A DNA stretch of 60,343 bases from a virus. Lineage: Duplodnaviria; Caudoviricetes. This document shows, piece by piece, positions 1 to 30,333 of this stretch. Position numbers and translations under genes: made by a program. Position 1 is the stretch's first letter. Every line of letters begins with the position of its first letter. The notes under the pieces were generated by a model that saw only the letters and a program-made list of their open reading frames with translations, was not told the DNA's origin and searched no databases. The stretch covers positions 1 through 60,343 of IMG/VR virus record IMGVR_UViG_3300027813_000013. One strand, 5' to 3'.

Positions 1-336
1 ACGGACAGAAATTACAGTTACACGGACAGAAATTACAGTTACACGGACAGAAATTACAGTTACACGGACAGAAATTACAGTTACACGGACAGAAATTACA
101 GTTACACGGACAGAAATTACAGTTACACGGACAGAAATTACAGTTACACGGACAGAAATTACAGTTACACGGACAGAAATTACAGTTACACGGACAGAAA
201 TTACAGTTACACGGACAGAAATTACAGTTACATGGACAGAAATTACAGTCACAAGTACAATAGTTACAATCACAAGTACAATAGTTACAATCACATGGAC
301 AAAAATTACAGTCACATGGACAAAAATTACAGTCAC
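1..336. repeat. 21-bp coding tandem repeat: 11 identical units (1-231) plus 5 variant units (232-336)
   Basis: Unit acggacagaaattacagttac. On the minus strand each unit encodes C-[N/D]-C-N-[F/Y]-C-[P/T]. The variant units preserve all Cys codons. Confidence 0.95.
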
Positions 337-673
337 ATGGACATGCTACTTTCCATTCATCGAGTTTTGTTACCAGATCATCTATATGAGCGGCGGCTAT
401 TAAATCTCCGACACTTACAGCACCATAAGATAATGTTGGTGCAGGACTTGGTGGAGTTACACCATATAACTTATTTACTATTTCTCCACGTAATTCATTC
501 CAAATTGAGGCGGCAACAGGATCCACCATACTAGACCAAGATGAAGTTGCTATACTTCTTCTTGTAAATTCAGCATTTAATGAAGTTCTGCAAGTAGTTA
601 TGTCTGATTGTTCAATTAATGAACCAGATTGTGCTGGTAAACCAGTTAAATTGGTAGGACACGGCGAACCCAT
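1..673 (-). CDS. Cys-rich repeat protein, 3' end outside the window; not in the ORF track
   Basis: Hand translation from ATG at 673 (GGAG-N5-ATG): MGSPCPTNLTGLPAQSGSLIEQSDITTCRTSLNAEFTRR...VGDLIAAAHIDDLVTKLDEWKVACPCDCNFCPCDCNFCPCDCNYCTCDCNYCTCDCNFCPCNCNFCP... The frame stays open to the window edge and is on the same strand as the upstream fibre genes. Confidence 0.85.
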   Translation of the reverse strand, partial: MGSPCPTNLTGLPAQSGSLIEQSDITTCRTSLNAEFTRRSIATSSWSSMVDPVAASIWNELRGEIVNKLYGVTPPSPAPTLSYGAVSVGDLIAAAHIDDLVTKLDEWKVACPCDCNFCPCDCNFCPCDCNYCTCDCNYCTCDCNFCPCNCNFCPCNCNFCPCNCNFCPCNCNFCPCNCNFCPCNCNFCPCNCNFCPCNCNFCPCNCNFCPCNCNFCPCNCNFCP

Positions 674-765
674 TATATCTCCATAAGAAACATTTTATAC
701 TTTCAAAATCATACTGCTAATTAATAATACTTTGGTAAAGCTGTGGACATATATTATATATATTA

Positions 766-3700
766 TCATACTTTTACTTCAACAAATCCCGCATTACTAT
801 TAGATAATGCTATTCCAATTAAATCGTGTTTATGAGGCGTATATTCGTATTTAGTTATAACTTTTCCAGTTCCATCATTATAAGCTATAATAAGGTCTCC
901 TTTGTTACATCCTCCCTCGATCTTAACAAATATTCTACCTGTCAAACAAATGAAAATCATATATTCATTTTCTCTTTGTTTCGCACCATCATTCATTCTC
1001 AATCCAGGTTTGTCTGAAACAACACCAGCATAGGGCATTTCAGCTTGATACAAAGTAACTTCTTTTGTTCCTCCAATTGCTAAAACAGTTCCTGGATCAT
1101 AGATTTCATCAGATTCATATCTCTCGGCCAAGTCAGACCAGTTTGCTGATGTCGCTCTTCCATTAAATGTAACTGCATACATGTCATTATACACCATTGT
1201 TGATGTACCAATATCATGCGTATTATTTGCGACAGGAACAATAGCTACTGTTGTCATTGTTCCTTCAAAACCAGAAGTTCCGTGTGTTCTTAAATTTGCT
1301 ACTCCAGTTGCACCACTTGAAGAGTAAATTGGGAAATTCATAGCTAATTGAGTTGGAGTTGTAACATCATCTACAAGAAATCCAGAATACGCTCCAAGAG
1401 TAGTTGATGTTGCATAATATTGAACATATCCAGCGGCTCCTGCTGGGAAACTTCCATCTAGACCAGCACTTCCTGATGTACCAGCAGAACCAGCACTTCC
1501 AGCACTTCCAGAAGAACCAGATGAAGCATAAGTTAATCCAGAAGATCCCGAAGTACCAGAAGATCCTTCTCCAAAAGTTAATGCCGCCCAGCCTGTTTGC
1601 GGTCCCTCAAAAACAATTTTTACAGTATTTGAATCTATATACCGAGTTGATTCTGGTACAATTACATCATAATTAGAATCTACAACTTCTATATTTAATG
1701 GTCTAGTTCCTAAATTATGATTTATCAACCAAACAAGGGATGATGCGGCCTGAGTATGAATAAAAGAACCACCGTCTTGTCCAGATGATCCTGCACTTCC
1801 TGCAGAACCAGAAGATCCAGCAGAACCAGATGATCCAGCACTTCCAGAAGTTCCTGCAGTTCCTGCAGAACCAGCACTTCCTGCGCTTCCAGTAGAGCCA
1901 GATGAAGCATAAGTTAATCCAGAAGATCCCGAAGTACCGGAAGATCCTTCTCCAAAAGTTATTGCGGCATAGCCTGCTTGTGAAGTAGGAAAGATTATTT
2001 TTACAGTATTAGAATCTATGTATTGAGTTGATTCTGGAAAAATTACATTGTAATTGGTATCTACAACTTCAATATTTACAGGTCGTGTATTAAGATTGTA
2101 AGGTATCAACCAAACAAGTGCAGGCGTAGATTGTGTATGAATATAAGAACCGCCGTCTGATCCAGAGGATCCAGCAGTTCCACCGGTTCCAGAAGTTCCA
2201 TCTACGCCAGACGATCCTGCACTTCCAGCACTTCCAGCAGAGCCAGCACTTCCTGAACTTCCAGCAGAACCAGACGAACCAGCAGAACCAGAAGTTCCTG
2301 ATGTACCAGCATCACCAGTTCTTGCAAATGTAACGATTATTCTATCATCATCAGCAAAGAATGTATTTTGTCCTGCGATTTTTGAAACTTCTATTTCTTG
2401 AAAATCTGTTTCATTAGTAACCTCTGAAATTGTAAACATTACAAATTCAGAAGAAGCGCCTTTTTTAGATAATTTTATATGACCCTTAATCGCAGAAGTT
2501 GCTCCCTCCACTTGGTCTAAAAAATCTGAAGTTGATGTTCCGTTTACATCAGCTTCGCTTATAGAAATTCTGTCAACCAATGCCATACTTGTGGGAGCAG
2601 TTCCAGTATCAATTCCTACTTCAAGCCTACCAGCACCTGGATCACTTGCGGCTCCTGTAAATCCTGTAACTTCAAAATCATATTCGAAAGATGCACCACC
2701 AAAAGTTCCTGATGTACCAGCACTTCCTGATGTACCAGCACTTCCTGCGCTTCCAGCACTTCCAGCAGAGCCAGCAGATCCAGCACTTCCAGCAGAACCA
2801 GCAGAGCCAGATGAAGCATATGTTAGTCCAGAAGATCCTGCGCTACCTGCAGAGCCAGCACTTCCTGCACTTCCAGAAGATCCAGCAGAACCAGCAGATC
2901 CAGCACTTCCAGATGATCCTGCAGAGCCTGAACTTCCTGCAGATCCAGCACTTCCAGCAGAACCAGAACTTCCAGCACTTCCTGTGCTACCAGCAGAACC
3001 AGAACTTCCTGCAGAGCCAGAAGATCCAGCAGAACCAGAAGATCCAGCACTTCCTGCGCTACCAGCACTACCTGCGCTTCCAGCAGAGGCATAAGTCAAT
3101 CCAGAAGATCCTGCAGAACCAGCACTTCCTGCGCTTCCAGAAGATCCAGCACTTCCTGCAGATCCAGCACTTCCAGCAGAACCAGAACTTCCAGCACTTC
3201 CTGTGCTACCAGCAGAACCAGAACTTCCTGCAGAGCCAGAAGATCCAGCAGAACCAGAACTTCCTGCAGAGCCAGAAGATCCAGCACTTCCTGCGCTTCC
3301 AGCAGAACCAGCACTTCCTGCACTTCCAGAAGAACCAGAAGTTCCTGTAGTTCCAGAAGATCCAGATGAAGCATATGTTAGTCCAGAAGTTCCAGCAGAA
3401 CCAGAAGTTCCTTCTCCAAAAGTTACTGCAACATATCCTGCTTGTGCGGTAGTAAAAATTATTTTTATATTACTTGAATCAATAAATTGGGTTGATTCAG
3501 GAAAAAGCATATTGTAATTAGAATCTACAACTTCTATATTTACAAGTCTATTTCCTAAAGCATGATTTACTAGCCAAACAAGTGCAGGCGTAGATTGTGT
3601 ATGAATAAAAGAACCACCATCTCGTCCAGATGATCCTGCAGAACCAGCAGAACCAGCACTTCCAGATGATCCAGCACTTCCTGCGCTTCCTGCAGAACCA

Positions 3701-5373
3701 GAACTTCCTGCAGAGCCAGAAGATCCAGCAGAACCAGATGAACCAGCACTTCCAGCAGAGCCAGCACTTCCAGAAGATCCAGATGAAGCATATGTTAGTC
3801 CAGAAGAACCCGCAGATCCAGCACTTCCAGCAGAACCAGCAGATCCAGCACTTCCAGATGATCCCGCAGAGCCTGAACTTCCTGCAGAGCCAGCACTTCC
3901 AGCAGAACCAGAACTTCCTGCGCTTCCAGCAGAACCAGCACTTCCTGCGCTACCTGCAGAGCCAGCACTTCCTGCGCTACCGGAACTTCCAGCAGAACCA
4001 GATGTTCCTGAAGTTCCAGATGTACCAGCATCACCAGCCCTTGCAAATGTAACAACTATATCTTCATCATCTGCAAAAAAAGCATCATTTCCACCAACTT
4101 TTGAAACTTCTATCTCTTGAAAATCTGTGTAATTAGTAACCTCTGAAATTGTAAATATTACATATTCACTTGAAACTAATCTTCGATGAATTCTTACATG
4201 ACCTTTAATCGCAGAACTTGCTGTTTGTACTTGAGTTAAAAAACTTTCAGTTGATGTTCCATTTACATCTACTTCACTTATAGAAATTCTATCAACTGTA
4301 GAAAAATCAGTAGGCGCAGATCCAGTATCAATTCCTACTTCAACTCTACCAGCACCAGGATCACTTGCGGCGCCTGTAAATGTCGTAACTTCAAAATCAT
4401 ATTCGAAAGATGCACCACCAAAAGTACCATCTAATCCAGAAGATCCCGAAGTACCAGCACTTCCTGCAGAACCAGCAGATCCAGCAGATCCTGCGCTTCC
4501 AGCAGATCCAGCAGAGCCAGCACTTCCTGCACTTCCAGAAGAACCAGAAGTTCCTGCAGAGCCAGAAGATCCAGCACTTCCAGCAGAACCAGCACTTCCT
4601 GCGCTTCCAGCAGATCCAGCAGAGCCAGCACTTCCTGCACTTCCAGAAGAACCAGAAGTTCCTGCAGAGCCAGAAGATCCAGCACTTCCAGCAGAACCAG
4701 CACTTCCTGCGCTTCCTGCAGATCCAGCACTTCCAGCAGAACCAGCACTTCCTGCACTTCCCGAAGAACCAGCACTTCCAGAAGATCCAGATGAAGCATA
4801 TGTTAGTCCAGACGATCCAGATGTTCCAGAACTTCCTTCTCCAAAAGTTATTGCCGCCCATCCGGCTGTTGCCGTAGAAAATATTATTTTTACATTATTT
4901 GAATCTATGTATTGAGTTGATTCTGGAAAAATTACATTGTAATTGGTATCTACAACTTCAATATTTACGGGTCTAGTATTTAAATTATAAGGTATTAACC
5001 AAACAAGTGCAGGCGTAGATTGTGTATGAATAAAAGAACCACCATCTTGTCCAGATGATCCAGCACTTCCTGCGCTACCAGCAGAACCAGCACTTCCAGC
5101 AGAACCAGCAGATCCAGATGAAGCATAAGTCAATCCCGAAGATCCTGCACTACCTGCAGAGCCAGCAGATCCAGCACTTCCTGAACTTCCAGCAGAACCA
5201 GACGAACCAGCAGAACCAGACGAACCAGCAGAACCAGATGAACCAGCGGAGCCAGCACTTCCAGAAGATCCAGTACTTCCAGCAGAACCAGCACTTCCTG
5301 CAGAACCTGAAGAGTTGTTCAGATAAGTTTTTATACTAAATTCAGCGTGTTCGCCTTTAAGAAATAATGCCAT
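766..5373 (-). CDS. Modular collagen-like (Gly-Ser-Ala/Gly-Ser-Ser) fibre protein with C-terminal chaperone/peptidase-G2-like domain
   Basis: Long G-X-Y tracts; 4 copies of a HTQ..VW...HNL..RP.N.EVVD module; 2 copies of a FGGASFEYDF..DPGAG module. The C-terminus SDLAERYESDEIYDPGTVLAIGG..GVVSDKPG..ICLTGRI.VK resembles intramolecular chaperone domains of phage fibres. Confidence 0.75.
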   Translation of the reverse strand: MALFLKGEHAEFSIKTYLNNSSGSAGSAGSAGSTGSSGSAGSAGSSGSAGSSGSAGSSGSAGSSGSAGSAGSAGSAGSSGLTYASSGSAGSAGSAGSAGSAGSAGSSGQDGGSFIHTQSTPALVWLIPYNLNTRPVNIEVVDTNYNVIFPESTQYIDSNNVKIIFSTATAGWAAITFGEGSSGTSGSSGLTYASSGSSGSAGSSGSAGSAGSAGSAGSAGSAGSAGSAGSAGSSGSAGTSGSSGSAGSAGSAGSAGSAGSAGSAGSAGSSGSAGTSGSSGSAGSAGSAGSAGSAGSAGSAGSAGSAGTSGSSGLDGTFGGASFEYDFEVTTFTGAASDPGAGRVEVGIDTGSAPTDFSTVDRISISEVDVNGTSTESFLTQVQTASSAIKGHVRIHRRLVSSEYVIFTISEVTNYTDFQEIEVSKVGGNDAFFADDEDIVVTFARAGDAGTSGTSGTSGSAGSSGSAGSAGSAGSAGSAGSAGSAGSSGSAGSAGSAGSSGSAGSSGSAGSAGSAGSAGSAGSSGLTYASSGSSGSAGSAGSAGSSGSAGSSGSAGSSGSAGSAGSAGSSGSAGSAGSAGSSGRDGGSFIHTQSTPALVWLVNHALGNRLVNIEVVDSNYNMLFPESTQFIDSSNIKIIFTTAQAGYVAVTFGEGTSGSAGTSGLTYASSGSSGTTGTSGSSGSAGSAGSAGSAGSAGSSGSAGSSGSAGSSGSAGSSGSAGSTGSAGSSGSAGSAGSAGSAGSSGSAGSAGSAGSSGLTYASAGSAGSAGSAGSAGSSGSAGSSGSAGSSGSAGSTGSAGSSGSAGSAGSAGSSGSAGSSGSAGSAGSAGSSGSAGSAGSAGSAGSSGLTYASSGSAGSAGSAGSAGSAGSAGSAGSAGTSGSAGTSGTFGGASFEYDFEVTGFTGAASDPGAGRLEVGIDTGTAPTSMALVDRISISEADVNGTSTSDFLDQVEGATSAIKGHIKLSKKGASSEFVMFTISEVTNETDFQEIEVSKIAGQNTFFADDDRIIVTFARTGDAGTSGTSGSAGSSGSAGSSGSAGSAGSAGSAGSSGVDGTSGTGGTAGSSGSDGGSYIHTQSTPALVWLIPYNLNTRPVNIEVVDTNYNVIFPESTQYIDSNTVKIIFPTSQAGYAAITFGEGSSGTSGSSGLTYASSGSTGSAGSAGSAGTAGTSGSAGSSGSAGSSGSAGSAGSSGQDGGSFIHTQAASSLVWLINHNLGTRPLNIEVVDSNYDVIVPESTRYIDSNTVKIVFEGPQTGWAALTFGEGSSGTSGSSGLTYASSGSSGSAGSAGSAGTSGSAGLDGSFPAGAAGYVQYYATSTTLGAYSGFLVDDVTTPTQLAMNFPIYSSSGATGVANLRTHGTSGFEGTMTTVAIVPVANNTHDIGTSTMVYNDMYAVTFNGRATSANWSDLAERYESDEIYDPGTVLAIGGTKEVTLYQAEMPYAGVVSDKPGLRMNDGAKQRENEYMIFICLTGRIFVKIEGGCNKGDLIIAYNDGTGKVITKYEYTPHKHDLIGIALSNSNAGFVEVKV

Positions 5374-5693
5374 TAAATACTCGTATAACTAATTACCACT
5401 GAAACTTTGTTTATTGTATCAGCAATTGCTTGAATAGTGTCACTTGCACCCATCAAGATTCTCTCGCTTCCAAAAGCAAAAGTATCAGTTGCATTTATTG
5501 TTAATTCCTTCATTATCGTATGTTCATCACCCAAAGTGTCGCCACTAGGAACAATCCATACCGTTACATCTATATTTGAAGCATCTGTATTACAAAAAAA
5601 TATTGTTGTAACAGCAGATTCTCCTGATGAAGTATAAACCGTAGTAGGAGTTGCGGATGATGTACTCGCTATTAAATTTGTTTCGATTGACAT
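5373..5693 (-). CDS. Small beta-rich virion protein, putative fibre adaptor
   Basis: 106 aa with the pattern TTVYT..V.TIFFCN..V.VWIV..I.K...I common in marine phage fibre clusters. It is translationally coupled to both neighbouring fibre genes. Confidence 0.55.
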   Translation of the reverse strand: MSIETNLIASTSSATPTTVYTSSGESAVTTIFFCNTDASNIDVTVWIVPSGDTLGDEHTIMKELTINATDTFAFGSERILMGASDTIQAIADTINKVSVVISYTSI

Positions 5694-5694
5694 A

Positions 5695-8600
5695 TTAGAA
5701 TATTAATCCATAAGTTATTGCTTTTTTGCGTGAAACTAATTCATCGGGATCATCAGTTCCTTGTCTAAAATATATACCTGTTCCTCCTGCCCCCGAAGAA
5801 CTTGAAAAAACTGCAGATTGACCCGCAGACAAAGTAGGTTTATTTCCAGAAACATCATCTCTTTGAGACATCTGTACAAATCCAGTTGTTCCGCTTGTAC
5901 CTACCAAAAATGTTTTACCAGTCACGCTTAATTCATTACCATCAAATGTTAAATTTGCTTCTGCATCACCAGTAATAGTATCAGCATTAATAGAAATTAA
6001 ACGATCTTCTGCAGAATTATTTAGGTGTAAAAGCCCAGACGATCCTGCGCTTCCTGCGCTTCCTGCGCTTCCTGCGCTTCCAGAAGATCCAGATGAAGCA
6101 TATGTTAGTCCAGAAGATCCTGCAGTTCCAGAAGATCCTGAAGTTCCTTCTCCATAAGTTAATGCGACATATCCTTTTATCGCAGAAGTAAATACTATTT
6201 TTACAGTATTATTGTCTATAAATTGAATTGATTCTGGATAAATTGAATTATACCACTCATCCGTAACTTCTACATTTACAACTCTCAATCCTAAATTATG
6301 GGGTATTACCCAAGCCGCTGAAGCTACAGTTTGTGAATGTAAAAAAGAACTACCATCTTGTCCAGATGATCCAGCACTTCCTGCAGAACCAGCACTTCCT
6401 GCGCTTCCAGCAGATCCAGAAGATCCAGATGAAGCATAAGTTAGTCCAGACGATCCAGAACTTCCAGATGTACCAACATCACCAGTTCTTGCAAATGTAA
6501 CAACTATGTCTTGATTGTCAGGAAAAAATGCATTTTGTCCACCAATTTTTGAAACTTCTATTTCATGAAAGTCTGTTAGATCAGTAACCTCCGAAATCGT
6601 AAACATTACATATTGATCATGCTCTGATTTTTGATGAAGTCTTACATGTCCTCTAATCGCAGAAGATGATGTTGCTACTTGCTGTAAAAAACTCTCTGTT
6701 GATGTTCCGTTTACATCAGATTCGCTTATAGAAATTCTGTCAACTGTAGAAAAATCTGTTGGAGCAGTTCCAGTATCAATTCCTACTTCAACTCTACCAA
6801 CACCAGGATCACTTGGAGCTCCTGTAAACGATGTATTTTCAAAATCATATTCGAAAGCCGCCCCACCAAAAACACCATCTTGTCCAGATGATCCTGAACT
6901 TCCTGCAGAACCAGAACTTCCAGATGAGCCAGCACTTCCTGCGCTTCCTGCAGAGCCAGAACTTCCAGCAGAACCAGAACTTCCAGCAGAGCCAGAACTT
7001 CCAGCAGAACCAGATGAACCAGCACTTCCTGCACTTCCTGCGCTTCCAGTAGAGCCAGCAGAGCCAGAACTTCCAGCAGAACCAGAACTTCCAGCAGAAC
7101 CAGATGAACCAGCACTTCCTGCAGAACCAGCAGAACCAGCGGAGCCAGCACTTCCAGCAGAGCCAGCAGAGCCAGATGAAGCATAAGTTAATCCAGAAGA
7201 TCCAGATGTTCCAGAACTTCCTTCTCCAAAAGTTAATGCCGCCCAACCAGAAATTGTAGAAGCAAAGATTATTTTTACATTATTTGAATCTATATAATTA
7301 ACTGATTCTGGATAAATTACATCATAATTGCTATTGACAACTTCAAGATTTATCGGTCTAGTTCCTAAATTGTGATTTATCAACCAAACATTGGAGGCTA
7401 CAGCTTGAGTATGAATAAAAGAACCACCATCTTGTCCAGAAGATCCTGCACTTCCTGCAGATCCAGCACTTCCAGATGAGCCAGAAGATCCGGTCAGTCC
7501 TGTTGTTCCTGAACTACCAGCAGATCCAGAAGAACCAGATGAAGCATATGTTAGTCCAGAAGATCCTGCAGATCCAGATGAAGCATATGTTAGTCCAGAC
7601 GATCCAGAAGATCCAGTAGAACCAGAAGTTCCAGAATCACCAGTTCTCGCAAATGATGCAACAAGTTCAGTATTGTTTTGAAAATTATTTAATGAAGAGT
7701 CTAAAAATGTAACATTTACATAATACCATGAAGGATTTGTAGTGTCAAATCCATTGATACCATATAAGAAAAAATCTTCAGGAGCTGATTTATCATAAAC
7801 CCGAAAATGGCCTTTTGGATCACTAAAAGCAACATCATCGATTGTCTGTAAGAAAGAATCTATTGTTGTACCATCTTGATCGGTATCACTTATTCTTAAT
7901 CTATTAGCAGTATTGGGATATGTAAAAGTACCAGAAGTTAATGTAAATGCTAATTTACCTGTGCCTGGATCATCCGTTGATTGATCTGTATTATAACGAT
8001 ATGCAAATGAAGCACCGCCAAAACCGCCATCTTGTCCAGATGATCCTGAAGTACCAACTGTACCAGAACTTCCTGAAGTTCCTGAACTTCCATCTGAACC
8101 AGAAGATCCAGCACTTCCTGCAGAACCAGCACTTCCTGCGCTTCCAGCAGATCCAGAACTTCCAGTAGAACCAGACGATCCAGCACTTCCTGAGATACCA
8201 GAAGAACCAGCAGAACCAGCACTTCCTGCGCTTCCAGCACTTCCCGAAGAACCAGAAGTTCCGTCTAATCCAGATGATCCCGCACTTCCTGCAGAACCAG
8301 CACTTCCAGCAGATCCAGAACTTCCAGCAGAACCAGACGATCCAGCACTTCCTGAGCTACCAGCACTTCCAGCAGAGCCAGCACTTCCTGCAGAGCCAGC
8401 AGAACCAGCACTTCCTGCAGAACCAGCACTTCCTGCGCTTCCCGAAGAACCAGATGAAGCATATGTTAGTCCAGAAGAGCCTGCAGTTCCAGAAGACCCT
8501 GAAGTTCCAGAAGATCCTTCTCCAAAAGTTACTGAACACCAACCTGCAACAGAAGAATCAAATATTATTTTTACATTATTAGAATCTGTAAATTGAATAG

Positions 8601-9420
8601 TTTCTGGGACAATTACATTGTAATTAGAATCTACAACTTCAATATTTAAAGGTCTAACGCCTAAATTGTGATTTATTAACCAGACAAATGATGCTATAGA
8701 TTGAGTATGAATATGAGAACCACCATCTTGTCCAGACGATCCCGCACTTCCAGAAGTTCCTGTAGATCCAGCAGATCCAGATGAAGCATAAGTTAAACCC
8801 GAAGACCCAGAAGTTCCAGCAGTTCCAGCAGATCCAGAAGTTCCTGTATCTCCAGAAGAGCCAGAAGTTCCATGAGTACCTAAAAATGATCCATCAACTC
8901 CAGATGAACCCGCAGATCCCGAAGAAGTATCTCCTCCTCCGCCACCTCCAGATTCGCCCCAACCACTTCCTCCAGCTACTCTTTGTGCAGTTTGAGTGGC
9001 TTTTTTGCTAACTTTCTTAACAACTGCTTTGAAATTATCTAACTCTTTTGCAAGTTTAGTTACATCAGCATCATCACCTGGTTCTCCCTGGTCTCCTTTT
9101 GGACCTATAGGACCAGTATCTCCTAGCTCCCCCTTAGGACCCAGAACACCCTGTGGACCAATTCTTCCTGCTTCTCCTGCTTCTCCTTTAGAGCCTGCTT
9201 CTCCTGCAGAGCCCTGTTCACCCTTTTCGCCCTTGGATCCTTCAGTACCCTTAATCTCAAGAACTTTGACTTTTTCACCAGTAACAGGATCTAAAATTTC
9301 TTTTACACCCTCAACCAGTTCGTCTTTAGTCTTTTTTAATTGTTTTTTAGTATAAGCAAGAGAAGTTGCTAGAACCTTACTTAAATCTAAGTCTTTAGAC
9401 TCTTTTTGATCATCTTTCAT
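5695..9420 (-). CDS. Modular collagen-like fibre protein
   Basis: N-terminal helix, a classical collagen tract ([13 protein letters not shown]...[13 protein letters not shown]), then GSA/GSS tracts with 3 HTQ/HSQ modules and 2 FGGA(S/A)F modules. It ends in hydrophobic KAITYGLIF. Confidence 0.75.
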
Positions 9421-9445: not shown

Positions 9446-11128
9446 TCAATCTACAAATTTTTCATCATCTTCTAAAACAGAAAAAAGAATATCATTTACT
9501 TTATCTTTAATATCATTCTCTTTTTTCGCTGATTCAAACTTTTCTTCAATTTTCTTATCAATATTTTCATTGATATTTTGTTTATTGTTTGTATCTATTT
9601 CTACAGAATTGAACTGCATATCTTCTTCTCCCGAAAATCTAGGATCATCCATCTCTTTTTGAATTTGTTCATCATTAGTTTTAACTTCATCATCAGTCAT
9701 CATTAAAATATGCTTTCTAATATATTCATGCGACCAATATTTTCCAGCATAATCTTGTAAATCTCTTAAAATGTTTAATCTATCTTGCATAAGTTCACTC
9801 TGTTTTATTTCTGCAAAATGACTATCATTTTCAAATTCATAAAATATTTCATTTTTAATATTTTTCCAATCGTCTTTAGACATTATGCCCTTGAGGGTTA
9901 ATTGTCTTTCCATCATTTCATCAAACATTAAACTAAATCTGCTTTGAAGTTTATTAACAAAACGTGTAAATTTAACTTCATCTCTTGAAATTTCAGTAGC
10001 ACGACCAATCGTATAATTTGCTTCTGATTCAAGTCTTGAAATAGGAACACCTAAAGATTTGTAAAGTTTTTTCTGAAAATATAATACATCTTCAATATCT
10101 CCAAGATTTGCACCACCAGGCAAAGTAGTAATTTCTGTTCCTCTTCCACCCTCTCTTCGTGGCATCCAATAATCTTCAAGCATTGACATGTGTTTTCTAT
10201 CATCTCTAACTTCACCTGTTTGAGCATCATATACAAGTTTGTTTTTATATCTTGCCATTAAGTCACGCATGTATTGTTCTGCTTTTAACTTAGGTAAATT
10301 TCCAACATCAACATAAAAAATTCTTCTCTCTGGGGCTCGTGAAATACGATAAATTACGAGAGAATCCTCGATCATTCTTAATTGATTTAATGGTTTGATT
10401 GCTTTGTGTAGGTAGGACAAAACTAATGTACGTGTACTGTTCATCAGTCCTGAATGTGTATATACAATCGCATCAGGAGATATTTTTAAACCAGTGGCGG
10501 CACTTGTAAAAGCAGTACCCATTGTCTGCCCCTGTGATTGATATATTCCTTTTTGATTATAAACATAATATTCCGTGACGGTGGTTTTTGTTTTACCGTC
10601 AGGCTGTCTGTCGTTTTTCTTTTCTCGAATTTTCTTTATTTTTCTAGGATCTAATACTCTTAATTCATGAATACCTTTTTCCATATTGTTTTCATCAACA
10701 ATAACATGATAATAAATTCTACCATCAATATACCATCTTTTAAAAACATCATGTCCTAAATTTTGTAGATCTAAAAGTTTACTTATTTGTTTAAATTCTA
10801 GTCTTATTTTGTCTCTAATAGGCTCAGAAACATTTAAATTATCTACATTAATTCTTACGAGGGGTTTTTCTTTTGAGGCTACAATTGCTTCATTAATAAT
10901 ATCATCAATAGCATTTTCTACTTCTGCTTGAAGACCCATATCACGATATCTGTTTATTAATTCAGATTCGCTTTTTATAGCTCCTTCTGTATCGACATAT
11001 GTTCCATAAGCACCACCAGATGCTACTGTTAATGAACCATCTTCATATTCTGGTTCAGCAAAGGTTTGGGCTTTTACGTTTTTCTTTTCTTTTTTTCCGA
11101 TTGAAAAACCGAACAGTTCAATAGGCAT
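9446..11128 (-). CDS. gp20: Portal vertex protein
   Basis: T4 gp20 motifs: WYIDGRIYYH, SYLHKAIKPLNQLRMIEDSLVIYRISRAPERRIFYVDVGNLPK, EDYWMPRREGGRGTEITTLPGG. Confidence 0.98.
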   Translation of the reverse strand: MPIELFGFSIGKKEKKNVKAQTFAEPEYEDGSLTVASGGAYGTYVDTEGAIKSESELINRYRDMGLQAEVENAIDDIINEAIVASKEKPLVRINVDNLNVSEPIRDKIRLEFKQISKLLDLQNLGHDVFKRWYIDGRIYYHVIVDENNMEKGIHELRVLDPRKIKKIREKKNDRQPDGKTKTTVTEYYVYNQKGIYQSQGQTMGTAFTSAATGLKISPDAIVYTHSGLMNSTRTLVLSYLHKAIKPLNQLRMIEDSLVIYRISRAPERRIFYVDVGNLPKLKAEQYMRDLMARYKNKLVYDAQTGEVRDDRKHMSMLEDYWMPRREGGRGTEITTLPGGANLGDIEDVLYFQKKLYKSLGVPISRLESEANYTIGRATEISRDEVKFTRFVNKLQSRFSLMFDEMMERQLTLKGIMSKDDWKNIKNEIFYEFENDSHFAEIKQSELMQDRLNILRDLQDYAGKYWSHEYIRKHILMMTDDEVKTNDEQIQKEMDDPRFSGEEDMQFNSVEIDTNNKQNINENIDKKIEEKFESAKKENDIKDKVNDILFSVLEDDEKFVD

Positions 11129-23202: not shown

Positions 23203-23419
23203 CTTTATCCTTACTTAACAATTCTAAAATTTTGTTTACATTTTTCTTTATATGATTCATTTCATTTTTTAAAGTATTTATTTCATTTGCATTAGACATT
23301 ATCGTATTTGTTTGCGATACTTTTTGTCTATGTTTCAATAAAGCCGATTGATCTGTTGCAATAAGAGCATTGGAATACACATCTCTATGATATCTTGGAT
23401 CGTCTGTTTTTACTATCAA
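23189..23419 (-). CDS. Small coiled-coil hypothetical protein
   Basis: RD..SNALI...EINTLKNEMNHIK..ILELL. Coupled to the VrlC-like gene; this pairing is common in T4-like marine phages. Confidence 0.6.
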   Translation of the reverse strand: MIVKTDDPRYHRDVYSNALIATDQSALLKHRQKVSQTNTIMSNANEINTLKNEMNHIKKNVNKILELLSKDKDGNI

Positions 23420-26400
23420 GGTGTTCCCTCACTATCAAGAGCAATTGCACGTAAACTAACTATTTTAGGTATTCCTATAAAAGAGTCTTGTGCTACTCTA
23501 TCTAAAGTCATAACCAATTTAATTGAAAACGTTCTAAATTGATCATATTTTGCACCGGTGCCAGCTAGATAAGTAATTTTTTCATCTATAGTTTTAAATT
23601 CAAAACGTTTAAAGTCGTCTTCATTTAAAGAATAGGTAGTGCTTGCTGTTTGCTGTTCCATAAGATACCATGCTTTTTCATCAAAAGGCTCGGAATCATC
23701 ACTAGAAAGAACCTTGTAATAAACATGGATGTTAGATCCTCTGGGCTTATATGCATCCATATATATTTTAAGATCGGTTGCATCAAAATTCTCTTCTAAT
23801 GTTACTCGCCTTGAAATATACCTAGATGTTAAATTACCACCAGAAGAAAATGATGCTACATTAGTTGTTTGAACATTTACAGTACTATTAGCACCTTCAC
23901 CAACAACACTAATAACTGCAGTTGTTGTCATTCGTACATTATCAGAAACAGAAACAGATCCTCCAACATCCCAGTTAGTAATAGTTGGTGTAGAAATATA
24001 TCCTGAACCACCATGTTTAACCGAAACTTGATTGATAATGCCATTTGCATGAACATTAGCGGCTATTGTTGCAGTATTTGCGCCAATATCAGGAGCAGAT
24101 ACTACAAATACACTTGTATTACCTTCTGATGCCACATTGCTTGTTGTATTTCCAACTTCTGCACCAAAATAACCAGTACCAAAGTTAGACACAACAATAT
24201 CGGAATTTGATAAACTTCCATTGTTAATAAGATTTTCAATAGTAATAATACCCGTTCTTTGCTCATCAAGTACTGGAGATATTAAAGTATTTGCAGTTTC
24301 AAAATATGCATTAATTGTAAAACTATTATTTGCGGCTTGTGGGTATGTAATTTGCTTTTGTTTTTTGAAATCAATATTTTTATTTTCTTTAAATTTTACT
24401 AAAGAGCCTTTTGTTGATCCTGCTAAATCTGTTGCATAATAATTAAAACTTGTATAAGTATTTGCAAAATTAATAATTTCTGTCACTACTTTAAAAGTAT
24501 CTATAGTTGTATTTGAACTTGCATTTCCACTTGAAACATCAGAATTATCTAATCTAACATATGCATTCGATGATATAAACTCGCATCTATCCAATTGAAA
24601 CATTAAACCCTGATCTAATACTTCATTCCAAGCTCCTACATTTGTGGGCTTGAAAAAACTTCCAACATATGGCTGTTTTGTTATTTTTTTAGAAGTTCCA
24701 GTATGATAGGCACCATATTCAAAACCATAAAGTTTATATGCACTACTATTAGTTGTTACGCAAATTGCATATTCGTCTGGAGCAAGAAAAATAGGATGAT
24801 CAAATTTAAACATCGTTCTTGTGCCCTTATCCGTATCATTTTTATTTGCACTATAGGAATTTCCTAAAAATCCGGCAGGAAATCCTCCACTAGTATTTGC
24901 TACTGGAGTACTTGTATTTGCAGTAATTTTTCCAGGAGTCAAAATAACTTCACTTCCTGGTATAATCAAGGAGGTACTTGGCATTCCATTAATTATAGGT
25001 CTGAGTTGTACATTTACAGGAGACCTATTTCCTACTGATGCAGATTTTTCATTAAAAAATAATGTGACAGAATCAACAAAAAGTCCTGTAGGATATTGAT
25101 TTTTGTCAATAAAGAAAGTTTGTGCCATAGGATTCATATAATCCGTAGACTTAGACTGCCTTCCGTCAGAAGTTGATCTCGTAACTCTTTCTTCTTTAAT
25201 ATTTTCTCGTCTAGAAATGAGGGGTCTGGGAGAAACAAGACCCAATTCATTTTTAGAATCAAGTACTCCTGATGAATGAAATACTTCTTCTGCAACTGAT
25301 GTAGTAACAGCAGGAATATTATCAGGATCATCTGTCACTCTAAAAATATTTTGTCCACCGGTGAATTTATCAGGAGGAACATTAAAAACTCCCCCTACAA
25401 CACCTTCAGAAGAAACTGTTAAATACGAATCTTCAAAATTATAATTTACAATTGCAGTAATAGAACCGTTTGCTTTTGTATCGTCTCCTTGAATTACGGA
25501 TCCAACAGTAAAAGCAGTTTGGGCTGACATATCTGTAAGTAAAACAGTACAAGTGTTCTGAATATTTCTATCACTCATGTAAATAATTTTAGCAGTATTA
25601 CCCGCACTCGCTCCAGAACCTTGAATAGAAACTTGTTCAAAATTGCCCGCAGTAGTTCTAAATACGTTAGATGTGCTTACATTTGACAAACTCACAACAG
25701 AGGCCTGTTTCACATTAGACGACATATTGCTATCGGAGAAATAGGTATAAAGATTTTTGTTTGGTTTCAATCCTTTAGCAACAAAAGTTATTGATTGTTC
25801 TCTTACTTTTGGAACTACGCTTAAATTGACTGTTTTATTTCCAATAGACTTAACTATTTTTTCCGGTACACTTCCTGAACTCAATCCGGTCAATGTTTTA
25901 GTTTGGTTCGTTGTTTTTGCTCTTCTATCATTGTTTTTTGTATCACCAATATTTCTTATACCTTCTTTAACATCGTTATTGACTTGGGATCCAGACCAAA
26001 TTTCTTCCCAATCATTCCAATGGGTACCATGTCCTTTATTTGTTAAACTTTCAGAAGCCCAATTGTCATATTGTCCTTCAACATTAACCTTTACTTGTAC
26101 TTGACTGCTTTGATCATACCACATATCTCCATATGGATCTAATTTCATTTGTCCTATATAATTCTGAACAGAGAATGGGTTTATTTGAAAAACCCTTTGA
26201 ACATTTTTACCATCATTCGACCCTGTAAGGGGCATTTGTATAAACGTATTCGATGCAAACGGTAAGGTTAATATACCAGAATTATTTTCTAAAGTTGAAA
26301 AAGCAGTCCCACCATCAGAATTTGCATTAAAGTTTAATGGATGTAAATCTGAACTAAAAGTTGGTCTTAGGTGTCTCTTATCAAAATCAATTGACATAGC

Positions 26401-29400
26401 ATAATCATCATCAAAAACATCTCCAACACTATGTCCCGCAAATGGATCTACAAGAATTCCATTTTTAAATCGATCATTATTATTAGCATCAGTAATGATT
26501 AATCCATCGGCCTCTTTCTCTAATAAGCTAAGAGAAACATAATATTCAAGATTTTCAAGTCTTCTTTCAAGTTTACCAACATCTCTCATCGTAAATCTCT
26601 TATTTTCAACATAATTTACTTTTACATCATCTGACTTAAAAGTATATGCTGGTATTTCAAGATTATACAATGTCATTGCATCATCATCATCTGGAGGCAA
26701 CTGTGAAAATTTATCAGATATTCCTTCAATTACATCAAACGTTTTATCTCTATTCAATACAATTTTATCTTTTCTTGAAACATAGTATTGATAATCTGTA
26801 TCAAATGTATAATCATAATCAGGCATTGCTTTTTCATTGAACACATTTGATGTTATTGTAATGTCGTTTGTATATGAATAAGTATCTGTATTCGCAGTTT
26901 CAAAACCCAATCTTTTAGGTCTAAAATCGATCATATCTCTTAGTTCAACTTTTGTACCAGTTGTTGGACTTGTATATGTAGGAATATCATCATATGATGT
27001 ATTACCAGAACCAGAAAAAGTATAAGAATCAACTATAAATGGACCCCGCCCCGTATGATTATAATAATCAACTATTGCTACTACTTGACCAGTTGGTTTT
27101 AGTTCTCCGGTTTTTAAAGTTATAGTTCCATAGTCATAATAATTGTCTCTTTGACCGTTATCAAATATAAAGCTACTAGTTATATTATGAGCATTTGCAG
27201 TATTAGACATAGCCTCAAGTATCATAGCATTTGTAACTTCTTTCGTATCAGATAAAGAACTTACAATCCCAACTAACTTTTTAATGTCTGCTATTTCTAA
27301 ACTATTAGTAATACCAGGTTCAGTATTCATGTCAATTCCCAAATGAATTTGACCAGAATCTGCTTGAATCGTATTTGATGAAGCTGTTACCACATTAGCA
27401 ACTGTAGTATTTCCTGTAACTAAAGTTTTTTTCCCGAGTCCACCATTCGATGTATTCGCTCCATCAGTCGCTTTATACAACATTGTAGCATAAACATATA
27501 TGTTTTTGCCTGCATAAGAAGCCGCAGGAATCGTAGTGTTTCCAGATGTTACAATATCTACTTGATCCCCAGTAGCATTCAATGTCATCGATCTACCATC
27601 TGCTATACTGGAACCCGAAGTATTACTGAATTCTAGATAATCTCCTTGACTTGTGCCTACTCCTGCTTCATTACAAAAAACCAAATAGTTTGCATCTATA
27701 GTAGATGCAGAAATGGCTCCTGCACCAGTTGCTGGATAAAACAATTCATCAGAGTTCGGAGCCGAGAGAGTTGTAGTGCCAGTACCACTAAGCAATGCTG
27801 TAAATCCTCTTTTAAATTTATAATTTGCTTTTGACAAACTTGCAAGTGTTTTGTTTTGAAAAGGAAACAGTAATGATCTTTGATCTTCGGTATTATCGTA
27901 TAGAACAGTATTTCCAGTATCAGTTACATCACTTCTACCACTAATATCAATATTCATGGCTTTATCAAAATCGGTACCGGATGCCGTTGAAATAATAGAA
28001 CTAATATCTTTAACTCCAAAATTTATAGAATAAGTAGAAGTGGCTTGAGTTGGTTGTGTCAAAGCAGATTCTAATAGTGCAGTATAGTTCGAGGATTCAA
28101 GGGTTGCATCTGCATCTATATCATAACCCATCGGAGTTGTACCAGTATTTGCGCCCGACCATGAAATAATTTTTCTTGTATCAGAGGTATTTACTCCCAA
28201 ATATGAAGTATTAACAGTTATAGATGATCCATATAAGCAATTGACTGTTGGAAAAGAAGCGGCTCCAGACTCTACTAAATTAATAAGTGTATTATTAGCA
28301 GTAATAGCAGAGGCTACTGTTCCTTCTACTTTATTAAATCTAAAATCAAATAAATGAGCATCATATATTGCAGGAAATTTTACATGATAAGTACCATTTG
28401 CATCAGCACCACCACCATATTCTGAATTTACAGTAGATGATCTTCCTGCTTTAAAATCAAGTTGTCTTAATCGTACTGTTCCTATTTTTGTATTTGCTAT
28501 TGATGCGGCACTTGTATTATCAACTCCAACAAACTTTATACTTAAAGTATTTGCTGTATATGTAATTTTATTAGCTTCGGTTACTGTTCCATGTAGTTGA
28601 GTTGTTGATGGCCACTTAACTATATGTAAATCCATTAAGTCGGCACCCGTACCTCCAGATGATGAATTAATAGATGCACTATTTACACCCAAAGTAAAAG
28701 CAGTATTAGAAATAACATCTGTTACAACTGCATATGGTCCAAATTCAACTCCTTGTTTTTCTGCGGTAACTGATTCTGTATCTCTCGCTTTATTTAAATT
28801 CAAATATGTAGGAAATAAAGTTTCATGTTCAAAACCTTTTATGTATGCTTTTCCTGGACTTAATTCTGCAGTTATTTTTGTAGAAACACCTATTCTTTGA
28901 TTAGTACTTCCATCACCCAAGGCGGTTCCAGTTGTTAATGTAAGAGCCGTAGTATTTCCTATAGATGTAACTTCAGCAGTTTTTGATGTGTTACTAGAAA
29001 AGAATATAGTATCACCAACATTAACATCTGCTATAAAATTTGCACCGTTAGCTGTAACAGTTGCACTTGTGTTTGCTGATGTTCTATCGCCTGCAGTTCC
29101 TCCTATTTTATGATCAATAACATCAAGCAAAAATGGTCTAACTGTAAAATCACCAGAAGCATCAAATGTTCTTCTTGCTAGAATCTTTTCAACATTTCCC
29201 AGAATAGGAAATTTTATTTCTTCAATCTTTTCACCATTTTCCAATCTTAACAATTCAATAAAATCAGTATCCGAACTTCTGGCAATTGGATCTACGATTC
29301 CTGTTAGATATTCAGGTGTTCCAGATGCAGGTGTTGAAGGACTGCCTTGTATTAAATAATTAAATTCTGTAGTAGATCCGATGACTGAAACTGTAAATTT

Positions 29401-30333
29401 TCCGTTATATTCTGATTCAGTGGTGCCCGATACGACTATGACATCACCAACAGATAAATTATGATCAGTCGTTGTTGTTATACTTACTGTTCCTGATCTG
29501 TTATCTTTTGTATTAATAGCAAATGTAACACCCGATGAAGCTATTGTTTTACCAACTTCAAAATAGGGCTTTGTTGATAATGTCAAATCAACTTTATATC
29601 TATTTGCTCCAGGAGCAGTATAATTAGGAGTTCCTATTGCATTATCTAAAAGTGAAGAATCTTCAATACTTGTAACAATAGATTCTGTAATTGATAAACC
29701 TATTCTTGTAGAAGGATTAATGTTTTTAGTATCTAAAATAATACTTTGAGGAGAAACATGTAAAAAATAACCACCAAGATAGAATAGTCCTTCATTGACA
29801 CTAACTACAGAACCGACACCTGAAGCCAAAGATGTGGCAGTAGTTGATCCAGTTAGTCCGTCCGCTTCTCCTGCCACGGTCGCAAAAATTGTTGTTCCTG
29901 CATCAATCGTATTAATTGTTTCATCATCTAAAAATTTAGTATCATCAATATAATTAACCATCAAAGTGTCTAGAGATGTGGTCGAAAATTTTTGAGATGT
30001 TACAACTTCTGCTTTTGCTCCAGATGTTTGACCTTGAACTGTTCTTCCATTAAATAGAGATGAAACGATTGCGACATCTGAATATGTTGGTTTTAATTGT
30101 AAAGAACTAATCTTATTATTTAAGACTAATTCTGCACCCAAAACTCTAGAACCGTCTTGATAAAGAGTGTCTCCTGTTTTTTCTAATTGATTTTGAAGAA
30201 TAGATTGTATTTGATTTAATTCTCTCGCCTGAACCGAATATCCGGGTCGATATAGGACTTTATGAAAATTATTCTCTTCATTGAAATCATCATAATATGG
30301 CGATATGTTAAAATCTTGTGTTAATTTAGGCAT
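23416..30333 (-). CDS. Giant virion structural protein, VrlC/DUF4815-like
   Basis: FNISPYYDDF..FHKVLYRPGYSVQARELNQIQSILQNQ, NYTAPGANRYK, ARRTFDASGDF, NKRFTMRDVGKLERR..LEYY.SLSLLE, RFKNGILVDPF, PMAQTF. Confidence 0.85.
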   Translation of the reverse strand: MPKLTQDFNISPYYDDFNEENNFHKVLYRPGYSVQARELNQIQSILQNQLEKTGDTLYQDGSRVLGAELVLNNKISSLQLKPTYSDVAIVSSLFNGRTVQGQTSGAKAEVVTSQKFSTTSLDTLMVNYIDDTKFLDDETINTIDAGTTIFATVAGEADGLTGSTTATSLASGVGSVVSVNEGLFYLGGYFLHVSPQSIILDTKNINPSTRIGLSITESIVTSIEDSSLLDNAIGTPNYTAPGANRYKVDLTLSTKPYFEVGKTIASSGVTFAINTKDNRSGTVSITTTTDHNLSVGDVIVVSGTTESEYNGKFTVSVIGSTTEFNYLIQGSPSTPASGTPEYLTGIVDPIARSSDTDFIELLRLENGEKIEEIKFPILGNVEKILARRTFDASGDFTVRPFLLDVIDHKIGGTAGDRTSANTSATVTANGANFIADVNVGDTIFFSSNTSKTAEVTSIGNTTALTLTTGTALGDGSTNQRIGVSTKITAELSPGKAYIKGFEHETLFPTYLNLNKARDTESVTAEKQGVEFGPYAVVTDVISNTAFTLGVNSASINSSSGGTGADLMDLHIVKWPSTTQLHGTVTEANKITYTANTLSIKFVGVDNTSAASIANTKIGTVRLRQLDFKAGRSSTVNSEYGGGADANGTYHVKFPAIYDAHLFDFRFNKVEGTVASAITANNTLINLVESGAASFPTVNCLYGSSITVNTSYLGVNTSDTRKIISWSGANTGTTPMGYDIDADATLESSNYTALLESALTQPTQATSTYSINFGVKDISSIISTASGTDFDKAMNIDISGRSDVTDTGNTVLYDNTEDQRSLLFPFQNKTLASLSKANYKFKRGFTALLSGTGTTTLSAPNSDELFYPATGAGAISASTIDANYLVFCNEAGVGTSQGDYLEFSNTSGSSIADGRSMTLNATGDQVDIVTSGNTTIPAASYAGKNIYVYATMLYKATDGANTSNGGLGKKTLVTGNTTVANVVTASSNTIQADSGQIHLGIDMNTEPGITNSLEIADIKKLVGIVSSLSDTKEVTNAMILEAMSNTANAHNITSSFIFDNGQRDNYYDYGTITLKTGELKPTGQVVAIVDYYNHTGRGPFIVDSYTFSGSGNTSYDDIPTYTSPTTGTKVELRDMIDFRPKRLGFETANTDTYSYTNDITITSNVFNEKAMPDYDYTFDTDYQYYVSRKDKIVLNRDKTFDVIEGISDKFSQLPPDDDDAMTLYNLEIPAYTFKSDDVKVNYVENKRFTMRDVGKLERRLENLEYYVSLSLLEKEADGLIITDANNNDRFKNGILVDPFAGHSVGDVFDDDYAMSIDFDKRHLRPTFSSDLHPLNFNANSDGGTAFSTLENNSGILTLPFASNTFIQMPLTGSNDGKNVQRVFQINPFSVQNYIGQMKLDPYGDMWYDQSSQVQVKVNVEGQYDNWASESLTNKGHGTHWNDWEEIWSGSQVNNDVKEGIRNIGDTKNNDRRAKTTNQTKTLTGLSSGSVPEKIVKSIGNKTVNLSVVPKVREQSITFVAKGLKPNKNLYTYFSDSNMSSNVKQASVVSLSNVSTSNVFRTTAGNFEQVSIQGSGASAGNTAKIIYMSDRNIQNTCTVLLTDMSAQTAFTVGSVIQGDDTKANGSITAIVNYNFEDSYLTVSSEGVVGGVFNVPPDKFTGGQNIFRVTDDPDNIPAVTTSVAEEVFHSSGVLDSKNELGLVSPRPLISRRENIKEERVTRSTSDGRQSKSTDYMNPMAQTFFIDKNQYPTGLFVDSVTLFFNEKSASVGNRSPVNVQLRPIINGMPSTSLIIPGSEVILTPGKITANTSTPVANTSGGFPAGFLGNSYSANKNDTDKGTRTMFKFDHPIFLAPDEYAICVTTNSSAYKLYGFEYGAYHTGTSKKITKQPYVGSFFKPTNVGAWNEVLDQGLMFQLDRCEFISSNAYVRLDNSDVSSGNASSNTTIDTFKVVTEIINFANTYTSFNYYATDLAGSTKGSLVKFKENKNIDFKKQKQITYPQAANNSFTINAYFETANTLISPVLDEQRTGIITIENLINNGSLSNSDIVVSNFGTGYFGAEVGNTTSNVASEGNTSVFVVSAPDIGANTATIAANVHANGIINQVSVKHGGSGYISTPTITNWDVGGSVSVSDNVRMTTTAVISVVGEGANSTVNVQTTNVASFSSGGNLTSRYISRRVTLEENFDATDLKIYMDAYKPRGSNIHVYYKVLSSDDSEPFDEKAWYLMEQQTASTTYSLNEDDFKRFEFKTIDEKITYLAGTGAKYDQFRTFSIKLVMTLDRVAQDSFIGIPKIVSLRAIALDSEGTP

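Follow-up and report, generated by a model that had tools for sequence, protein, structure and literature searches.

Cysteine-heptad proteins encoded beside the tail fibre genes of T4-like phages co-occur with radical SAM enzymes and are candidate substrates for thioether cross-linking

The left end of IMG/VR virus record IMGVR_UViG_3300027813_000013, a stretch of 60,343 bases from a tailed phage that we refer to in its entirety as the window, raises the question of what a phage makes from a protein in which the last 114 of 224 residues hold 49 cysteines. An earlier note, made from the DNA of the window alone, had drawn attention to this minus-strand gene and offered two explanations: a solenoid binding metals or Fe-S clusters on the virion, or a substrate resembling those of peptides that are made on ribosomes and modified after translation (RiPPs), matured by a radical S-adenosylmethionine (rSAM) or similar enzyme encoded just beyond the window. 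Here we show that the cysteine repeat belongs to a real and conserved gene, and that genes of this family and a specific set of rSAM genes are found together whichever of the two is used as the starting point. By analogy with characterized maturases, we consider it rather probable that the heptad protein is a RiPP-like substrate of protein size, in which the rSAM cassette forms thioether links at the C-x-x-[N/D] motifs, and that it is probably part of a virion fibre.

The gene itself was read correctly in the earlier note, which described a hidden open reading frame (ORF) with a good ribosome-binding site and at least 16 cysteine heptads. From the ATG at 673-671, preceded by GGAG at 682-679, the frame is open down to base 2; the first 110 residues lack repeats, 16 exact heptads make up residues 111-222, and the 'CP' of a 17th follows, so that the exact and partial units together occupy 343..2 (Table 1). 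Tandem Repeats Finder describes the array as a period of 21 with 16.3 copies, 95% matches, and a score of 525. Six distinct heptad variants occur in the window and each retains all three cysteines, again as first noticed. Because five of the six reading frames of this stop-free 21-nt repeat are open, an open frame alone is no proof of coding. When 53 distinct units were compared, drawn from seven genes in the window's clade, the mean entropy was 0.50 at the first codon position, 0.29 at the second, and 0.95 at the third, and the cysteine codons varied solely between TGT and TGC. Homologues at 46-94% identity have retained the protein and not the DNA, and the cysteine frame runs on unbroken from a conserved N-terminal domain and start codon. 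The codon-position entropy and the conservation at the protein level lead us to reject a non-coding DNA repeat: 673..2 on the minus strand is a real gene, and the cysteine frame is its coding frame. A promoter and terminator scan of positions 1-1200 returned 8 promoter-like sites, compared with 5.3 +/- 2.0 in shuffled sequences, and 0 terminators, an uninformative outcome.

The window is the entire IMG/VR record (linear, with a CheckV completeness of 33%), and the record stops at window base 1. Since the contig ends within ten identical units, 16 heptads is what the assembly shows rather than a measured count; complete relatives have 7-17 heptads each. The Logan contigs listed for four seawater runs start at window position 314, the edge of the array, and 5 of the 16 metagenome contigs from the window's clade stop in or just before their arrays. 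The stretch as a whole occurs in many seawater metagenomes, 10 runs holding at least half of its sampled words. Arrays of this kind break short-read assemblies, with the result that such genes are frequently truncated where a contig stops and overlooked in annotation, which is what happened here.

Conserved homologues with a cysteine tail, which the earlier note expected to exist, are numerous. A profile of 12 members searched against 1.84 billion proteins, with representatives taken from clusters at 50% identity, recovered 454 representatives at E<=1e-3, 159 at E<=1e-10, and 11 at E<=1e-30. We inspected 158 relatives, 143 of which have at least one strict heptad, for a sum of 844 heptads. The search pattern fixed cysteine at positions 1, 3, and 5 and allowed D/N/Q at position 4, N/D/A at position 6, and Y/F/H/W at position 7, so at positions 4, 6, and 7 the proportions alone count as findings: N 557, D 210, and Q 77 at position 4; N 736, D 76, and A 32 at position 6; and Y 713, H 72, F 54, and W 5 at position 7. 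Position 2 is T, P, V, or S. CTCNCNY is the commonest unit (318 occurrences), and the CPCNCNF type found in the window is rarer (21). Complete members of the window's clade are about 180-260 aa long and end in CNCN-x-x-K, with CNCNQGK at the end of the closest complete relatives. Neither Pfam (E<=0.1) nor NCBIfam (E<=0.01) contains a family matching the heptad protein, metallothionein families included, and a tblastn search of GenBank phages with the 224-aa protein gave no match, its low-complexity filter masking the repeats. The only sequence matches of family member P0003 in the PDB, to the heptads of the RNA polymerase II C-terminal domain (E down to 8e-15), were set aside as an artefact of period 7 and composition.

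The N-terminal domain is common to several clades of the family. In the alignments it opens with an invariant MGSPCPxNLT and closes with LDEWKVAC, and in an alignment of 71 sequences the consensus GxxIxxxxxxxLRxx occurs three times, with E35 and R39 nearly invariant. An AlphaFold2 model built on the same 71 sequences has a predicted local distance difference test score (pLDDT) of about 90 over residues 20-110 and places a helix after each of these units (residues 22-38, 55-69, and 94-109); the three similar N-terminal segments pointed out from the window alone are therefore recognizable in both alignment and model. With 12 sequences the mean pLDDT was only 49.9. Foldseek found nothing similar to the model at E<=0.001 in the PDB or BFVD. 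A wide VIA-align search gave as its best match a designed filament (8UBG, Z 8.5) and as its second the BARA domain 3VP7, a threefold beta-alpha repeat, with a Z of 8.4 and a root-mean-square deviation of 3.5 over 113 residues; the tool describes scores of this size as background for helical models, and we assign no fold on them.

What lies beyond the contig end can be seen in three 88%-identical relatives (loci L002-L004). Here the gene is complete (203 aa, ending CNCNNSK) and the next gene starts 3 nt past its stop. In L003 the order after the heptad gene is rSAM1, rSAM2, two unknowns (u273 and u141), rSAM3, three further unknowns, a PF05118 protein resembling Asp/Asn beta-hydroxylases (E 1.2e-7), an acyl carrier protein (ACP), a short-chain dehydrogenase/reductase (SDR), and a protein resembling ketoacyl-ACP synthase III (KASIII) or type III polyketide synthases (PKS). 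Looking leftward for an rSAM/SPASM enzyme or an oxygenase, as the earlier note proposed, has thus turned up three rSAM enzymes and a candidate oxygenase in these relatives. In Pfam, rSAM1 is a Radical_SAM protein with a weak SPASM match. Its conserved cysteines are CX3CX2C plus seven in the C-terminal part (12/12 sequences); those of rSAM2 are CX3CX2C plus seven that include the canonical SPASM CX2CX5CX3C (10/10 sequences); and those of rSAM3 are CX3CX2C plus CX3CX2CX2C, a 4-Cys auxiliary motif (8/8 sequences). An adjacent rSAM enzyme with CX3CX2C and a 7-Cys SPASM domain is found both in the 88%-identical relatives and in the family; the window itself ends before it. The ACP, SDR, and KASIII/type III PKS-like genes that follow the cassette (L003:18679-20331) may belong to the same pathway or form a separate lipid or polyketide module. 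In L021, L027, and L039, two to four paralogous heptad genes stand in tandem next to one rSAM set.

The association between heptad genes and rSAM genes holds in both directions. In the forward direction, an alignment-based scan of viral contigs gave 24 loci with heptads, and in 19 of these a homologue of rSAM1, rSAM2, or rSAM3 (phmmer E<1e-3) lies on the same strand at a distance of at most 4 kb; one of three near-identical contigs was scanned directly, and the other two have an identical rSAM2. Four of the five loci without an rSAM gene are cut by a contig end beside the heptad gene: L010 has 0.9 kb of downstream sequence, L011 has 1.6 kb, L015 ends in the array, and L026 starts in the gene. 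The L010 and L011 exceptions can be explained because L110, the single match in a genome collection, shows the same arrangement complete, with the heptad gene followed by u273, PF05118, two unknowns, rSAM1, and rSAM2, so that the rSAM genes lie 3.2 kb further on. The L110 stretch (contig PAAV01000055.1, 161 kb, 35% G+C) carries a collagen-like fibre gene, the 106-aa gene, a 1662-aa collagen-like fibre gene, the heptad gene, and the rSAM cassette; the contig is titled as part of a Chloroflexota metagenome-assembled genome and looks like a T4-like phage genome binned into it. Within the window's clade there are 16 metagenome loci, some of them duplicates of IMG/VR contigs (L124 = L005, for example). 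Eleven have a complete heptad gene, and rSAM genes are present in all seven of those whose downstream sequence extends for about 3.3 kb or longer. The other four end earlier, with u273, with or without PF05118, as first neighbours.

In the reverse direction, a tblastn scan of viral contigs with the rSAM2 alignment gave 78 loci. Of the 23 loci at E<=1e-45, 18 hold at least three heptads within 6 kb and a 19th holds two; the close-rSAM2 loci without heptads are L042, L045 (near contig start), L051 (phage CPt10, whose heptad gene is elsewhere in the genome), and L053. Divided by identity, 18/34 loci at 29% or above have arrays versus 0/44 below 29%, and because none of the 44 distant loci has an array, ordinary viral rSAM genes do not travel with heptads. 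Across 26 non-redundant loci, the only protein families shared by most were the heptad protein (26 loci, 31 ORFs) and the rSAM enzymes (24 loci, 75 ORFs), the cassettes having three paralogous rSAM genes and, in many loci, a fourth. A fibre-like family ranked next with 17 loci, a figure that low-complexity matches may have inflated; 16 loci had a family of proteins of about 136 aa encoded downstream of the heptad gene, and 11 had u141.

For the population of the window itself, a contig from one sequencing run (X1) agrees with the window from base 200 on, and 255 further letters extend it to the left. Thirty of these letters, read by eye on the strand of the gene, encode Q-G-K-stop and, 3 nt on, M-N-N-M-Q; the equivalent place in L003 reads N-S-K-stop, 3 nt, M-N-N-I-R, the latter being the start of rSAM1. 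This one contig from one run is a hint that the same rSAM1 layout exists in the window's own population. The proposal of a RiPP-like substrate with a maturase just beyond the window is therefore supported, because rSAM genes adjoin the heptad gene in relatives, with the chemistry standing as a prediction; the proposal of a metal or Fe-S solenoid is neither favoured nor disfavoured.

All three enzymes have the ranthipeptide maturase PapB as their best NCBIfam model and 5WGG/5WHY as their best PDB match, and these structures are CteB according to the CrpC paper in its available text (PMC13692751). Weaker matches are to the cyclophane models YhhB and XyeB, an anaerobic sulfatase maturase model, and the YydG epimerase. 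By their profile scores the cassette enzymes belong to the superfamily and not to the PapB, SCIFF, or CrpC-type families. In rSAM3, about 110 residues precede CX3CX2C, and its matches to SCIFF, CcpM, and HxsB begin 20-40 profile positions in; this N-terminal extension stands at the place where those maturases carry their peptide-recognition (RRE) domain. Neither rSAM1 nor rSAM2 has an extension at that position.

Ranthipeptide substrates are rich in cysteine and contain Cys-Xn-Asp/Asn/Thr-type motifs in which these residues are the acceptors. The heptad protein has the makings of such a precursor, in that repeated Cys-Xn-acceptor motifs follow what would be the recognition region, and its rSAM enzymes resemble those of PapA/PapB (freyrasin) and the SCIFF pair CteA/CteB through the profile and structure matches given above. 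Unlike in those systems, the scores of the phage enzymes are far under the equivalog cut-offs, the substrate has a length of at least about 200 aa and its repeats number up to 17 or more, neither a protease nor an exporter is seen near the phage gene, and two of the three enzymes are without the RRE-position extension.

The nearest parallel is the 28.8-kDa Cys-repeat protein CrpA of Methanococcus voltae, into which CrpC, a SPASM rSAM enzyme, introduces thioethers (Dieter et al. 2026, PMC13692751). In the available text of that paper the modified motifs are CAVD, PCAGD, ACAGM, and CPLVL, which is to say from Cys to about i+3; its authors regard C-X-X-Q/D motifs as suggestive of thioether chemistry, and they also weigh metal binding for CrpA (PMC13692751). 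As far as that text goes, the phage system shares with CrpA/CrpC a substrate of protein size in which Cys repeats of C-x-x-[Q/D] type come C-terminal to a region for recognition at the N-terminus, a neighbouring rSAM whose SPASM domain has seven cysteines, a small protein in the cluster that is paralogous or accessory, and a low-confidence AlphaFold model of the repeat region. It differs in having a repeat of 7 residues with three cysteines, as against 17 residues in CrpA, and three or four rSAM enzymes per cassette as against one. It differs as well in that its enzymes reach 39 bits on TIGR04463 (cut-off 525) and in its setting, a phage and a fibre-gene module. The article text of PMC13692751, the supplemental homologue list being outside this scope, has neither 'phage' nor 'heptad', and its sole 'virus' is that of TEV protease. 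Full-text literature searches combining rSAM, phage, RiPP, SPASM, and heptad strings likewise gave no description of a phage heptad family, and no case of a virion's own protein being modified by an rSAM-type enzyme turned up.

We propose the following mechanism. A dedicated cassette just beyond the contig end would encode three rSAM enzymes, two of 7-Cys SPASM type and one with a 4-Cys auxiliary motif, together with a hydroxylase-like oxygenase and small conserved unknowns. The N-terminal domain, with its three beta-alpha-like units, would dock the heptad protein on the enzymes, the rSAM3 extension at the RRE position being a candidate contact. The enzymes would then move along the array, coupling Cys sulfurs with carbons in the side chains of residues close by. 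Each heptad offers two overlapping C-x-x-[N/D/Q] motifs, from C1 to N/D4 and from C3 to N6, and the stapled-substrate reading is favoured because this i to i+3 spacing is that of the modified CrpA motifs. The product would be a densely stapled rod resistant to protease and redox conditions, and Asn or Asp residues of the array may also be hydroxylated in this clade.

The first alternative to be weighed is that the array is an unmodified fibre module, in which CxCxC binds Zn, Fe, Cu, or Fe-S clusters or forms disulfides outside the cell, and that the rSAM enzymes act elsewhere. A tail that is three-sevenths cysteine with strict spacing, and to which AlphaFold2 gives no fold by itself, is what such a module might look like, and phage fibres with metal ions on their axis are known, the iron sites of T4 gp37 being an example. 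The willingness of the CrpA authors to consider metal binding for their own protein adds to this, as far as the available text shows (PMC13692751). It would leave the co-occurrence of one specific rSAM trio with the heptads in both directions (19/24 and 18/23, against 0/44 for unrelated rSAM enzymes) to be explained, and it does not account for N/D/Q at positions 4 and 6, which are not metal ligands, or for the aromatic residue at position 7. We consider an unmodified module improbable; metal binding after modification may still occur.

Where the protein ends up is suggested indirectly by its genomic neighbours and by the architecture of its longer relatives. The heptad gene follows two collagen-like fibre genes in the window, L011, L014, and L110; with the 106-aa gene these precede it in the window, in agreement with the earlier observation that it is the next gene after the fibre, and the idea of a fibre-tip protein is plausible. 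In 46 of the 158 relatives, SDxRLK, the start of the S74 domain, stands directly after the heptads, with a Peptidase_S74 match in the next ORF; this likens them to the S74-chaperone tail fibres and tailspikes, a likeness that the window's clade, being without S74, does not share. Some family matches are 1224-7009 aa long with the matched stretch internal to the chain, and the starts of P0060 and P0085 read by eye as a long repetitive fibre protein. In P0031 (520 aa), the array is followed by what appears by eye to be a Hint/intein-type N-terminal block and then a long C-terminal domain; besides S74, this block would make another type of self-cleaving module to stand behind heptads. The position of the gene after fibre genes, and the presence of heptads within giant fibre-like proteins and ahead of S74 or Hint domains in relatives, lead us to think that a fibre of the virion, or a part associated with one, is formed, and not a peptide that is released.

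The S74 proteins show a peculiarity of their own. Among 40 of the 46 SDxRLK proteins, 27 stop exactly 12 residues into the S74 motif (SDxRLKxxIxY[FM]-stop), and the ORF that follows 11-22 nt downstream, in a different frame, matches the remainder of Peptidase_S74 (from profile position 16 or 20 to 57), as in L019:7932-8543 with 8555-8836 and L025:7881-8558 with 8581-8856. These would be a conserved split, or recoded, self-cleaving chaperone domain.

A released, non-virion product, with the N-terminal domain as a long leader and the modified array serving as a diffusible or intracellular effector (antimicrobial, metallophore, or host-takeover factor, for example), seems to us no likelier than an unmodified fibre module. 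The leader-plus-core architecture, the fact that the rSAM matches are all to peptide maturases, the small size and missing S74 domain of the window's clade, and the ACP, SDR, and KASIII-like genes after the L003 cassette all speak in its favour. Against it, a leader protease or exporter was absent from the 12-13 ORFs after the L003 gene by Pfam, PHROGs, and NCBIfam, several of these ORFs being matchless; by Pfam alone, none was found in sampled ORFs around the gene in L110, L018, L019, L025, and L035, in three of the four genes between the L110 heptad gene and rSAM1, or in one member each of six conserved neighbour families. Other clades have their heptads inside very long proteins, before S74 or Hint self-cleaving domains, and the gene comes directly after fibre genes of a structural module on the same strand.

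Less probable again is that the protein is an rSAM substrate for another chemistry, such as C-C cyclophanes formed from position 7, epimerisation, or Cys oxidation of the formylglycine type, alone or mixed with thioethers and with each enzyme taking a different step. The restriction of position 7 to Y/F/H/W, the cyclophane, sulfatase-maturase, and YydG models among the weaker matches, and the presence of three paralogous enzymes per cassette, with a fourth in many loci, would be consistent with it. The top matches of all three enzymes are nevertheless thioether maturases, the invariant residues are cysteines, and C-x-x-[N/D/Q] fits the motifs modified in CrpA as given in the available text (PMC13692751). 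None of these rivals accounts for the two-way linkage as simply as a stapled substrate does.

Several observations weigh against the stapled-fibre proposal. None of the cassette rSAM enzymes attains any curated NCBIfam cut-off, the best scores being 135.5 of 340 bits for PapB (NF047865), 66.2 of 425 for SCIFF (TIGR03974), and 38.6 of 525 for the CrpC type (TIGR04463), and for this reason thioether chemistry is proposed by analogy only. The three cysteines of each heptad would suit metal binding or disulfides too, and AlphaFold2 does not fold the heptads (pLDDT 36-58 with 71 sequences). There are no maturases inside the window, and the link for this genome consists of synteny and one loose contig end. 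L018, which has a heptad protein, full 8-kb flanks, and no rSAM gene, is a true exception to the forward association, and in Campylobacter phage CP220 the rSAM2-type gene is about 145 kb away from the heptad gene. As to the virion, Pfam finds no Peptidase_S74 in the window protein, and its clade is also without Hint; the clade proteins are small, and their N-terminal domain could equally be a long leader.

The Campylobacter phages CP220, CPt10, and CP21 extend the family beyond marine viruses. Their gp140-type protein (phrog_26958), which surfaced through the pattern scan only, has the same CTCDCNY/CTCNCNY heptads, six by the pattern, with the run ACLCDCNYCTC...CNYCTCN reading as seven, and phrog_26958 matches the window protein at E 1.9e-29. 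It is unlike the window protein in its length of 534 aa, its longer and different N-terminal part, and its degenerate CxC-rich C-terminal part. An rSAM1-type gene is located 2.2-2.3 kb downstream of the heptad gene in these phages. In CP220 gp140 (L031:5933-7537), about ten degenerate CxC[ND]-type pairs extend over 200 residues after the heptads and look like a decayed or spaced-out array. Small peptides encoded before the CP220 rSAM gp023 were considered and are not heptad proteins. The CP220 record annotates the heptad protein as hypothetical, with six repeat_region features. The available text of PMC2853527 (Timms et al. 2010) reports 'a 21 bp repeat motif' inside CPT_0180/CPt10_1891 along with 11-12 rSAM genes in CP220/CPt10; there the rSAM genes are read as aids to host metabolism, and the repeat and the rSAM genes are left unconnected. 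Taking these phages together with the marine ones, we advance tentatively, and with less confidence than the proposal for the heptad protein itself, that tailed phages from marine T4-like myoviruses to Campylobacter phages use three or four private rSAM enzymes, joined in the window's clade by an Asn/Asp hydroxylase, to make a thioether ladder of a CxCxCNY array on a virion fibre.

The genes of the window include, by PHROG, portal, sheath, tube, terminase, and baseplate, the portal being about 50% identical to portals of cyano-, pelagi-, and Methylophilales myophages, and the window is the structural module of a marine T4-like myovirus (Table 1). The two giant fibres consist of long G-S/T-A collagen-type runs that alternate with two kinds of repeated globular module, ...GGSFIHTQ... 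and ...FGGASFEYDF.... In the baseplate region, the minus-strand ORFs 38990-43213 (1407 aa) and 43213-46641 (1142 aa) have no PHROG match at E<=1e-5, and a 2305-aa minus-strand ORF (23416-30333) has as its sole match phrog_358, a family of unknown function.

Table 1. Features at the left end of the window, in window coordinates
Feature	Coordinates	Strand	Remarks
Cys-heptad protein coding sequence	2..673	minus	224 aa; 3' end cut by contig end
GGAG ribosome-binding site	679..682	minus	5 nt spacer to ATG 673-671; read directly from sequence
N-terminal domain, aa 1-110	344..673	minus	Alignments and AlphaFold2 model
16 heptads C-[PT]-C-[DN]-C-N-[FY]	8..343	minus	17th begun in bases 2-7
Ten identical 21-nt units at contig end	8..217	minus	Assembly break here
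Collagen-like fibre protein, 1535 aa, upstream of heptad gene	766..5373	minus	Pfam Collagen E 4.5e-84; PHROG tail-fibre families
106-aa gene between the two fibre genes	5373..5693	minus	Same gene, same place in L110
Second collagen-like fibre protein, 1241 aa	5695..9420	minus	Pfam, PHROG tail-fibre families
T4 gp20-type portal protein	9446..11128	minus	phrog_213 E 2e-205

If the proposal is true, it would be the first enzymatic rSAM cross-linking of a virus structural protein, with phages using oxygen-sensitive radical chemistry to harden or shape a protein of their own, and the protein-sized thioether substrates introduced with CrpA/CrpC in 2026 would be extended to viruses. It also supplies a likely substrate, and would supply a likely function, for the rSAM genes of CP220, CPt10, and CP21, which have been presumed to be metabolic helpers since 2010, to judge from the available text (PMC2853527). 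The cassette would add three enzyme families of SPASM or twitch type, all of them new, with a very regular seven-residue repeat as their target, and these may serve as a handy model for processive protein stapling.

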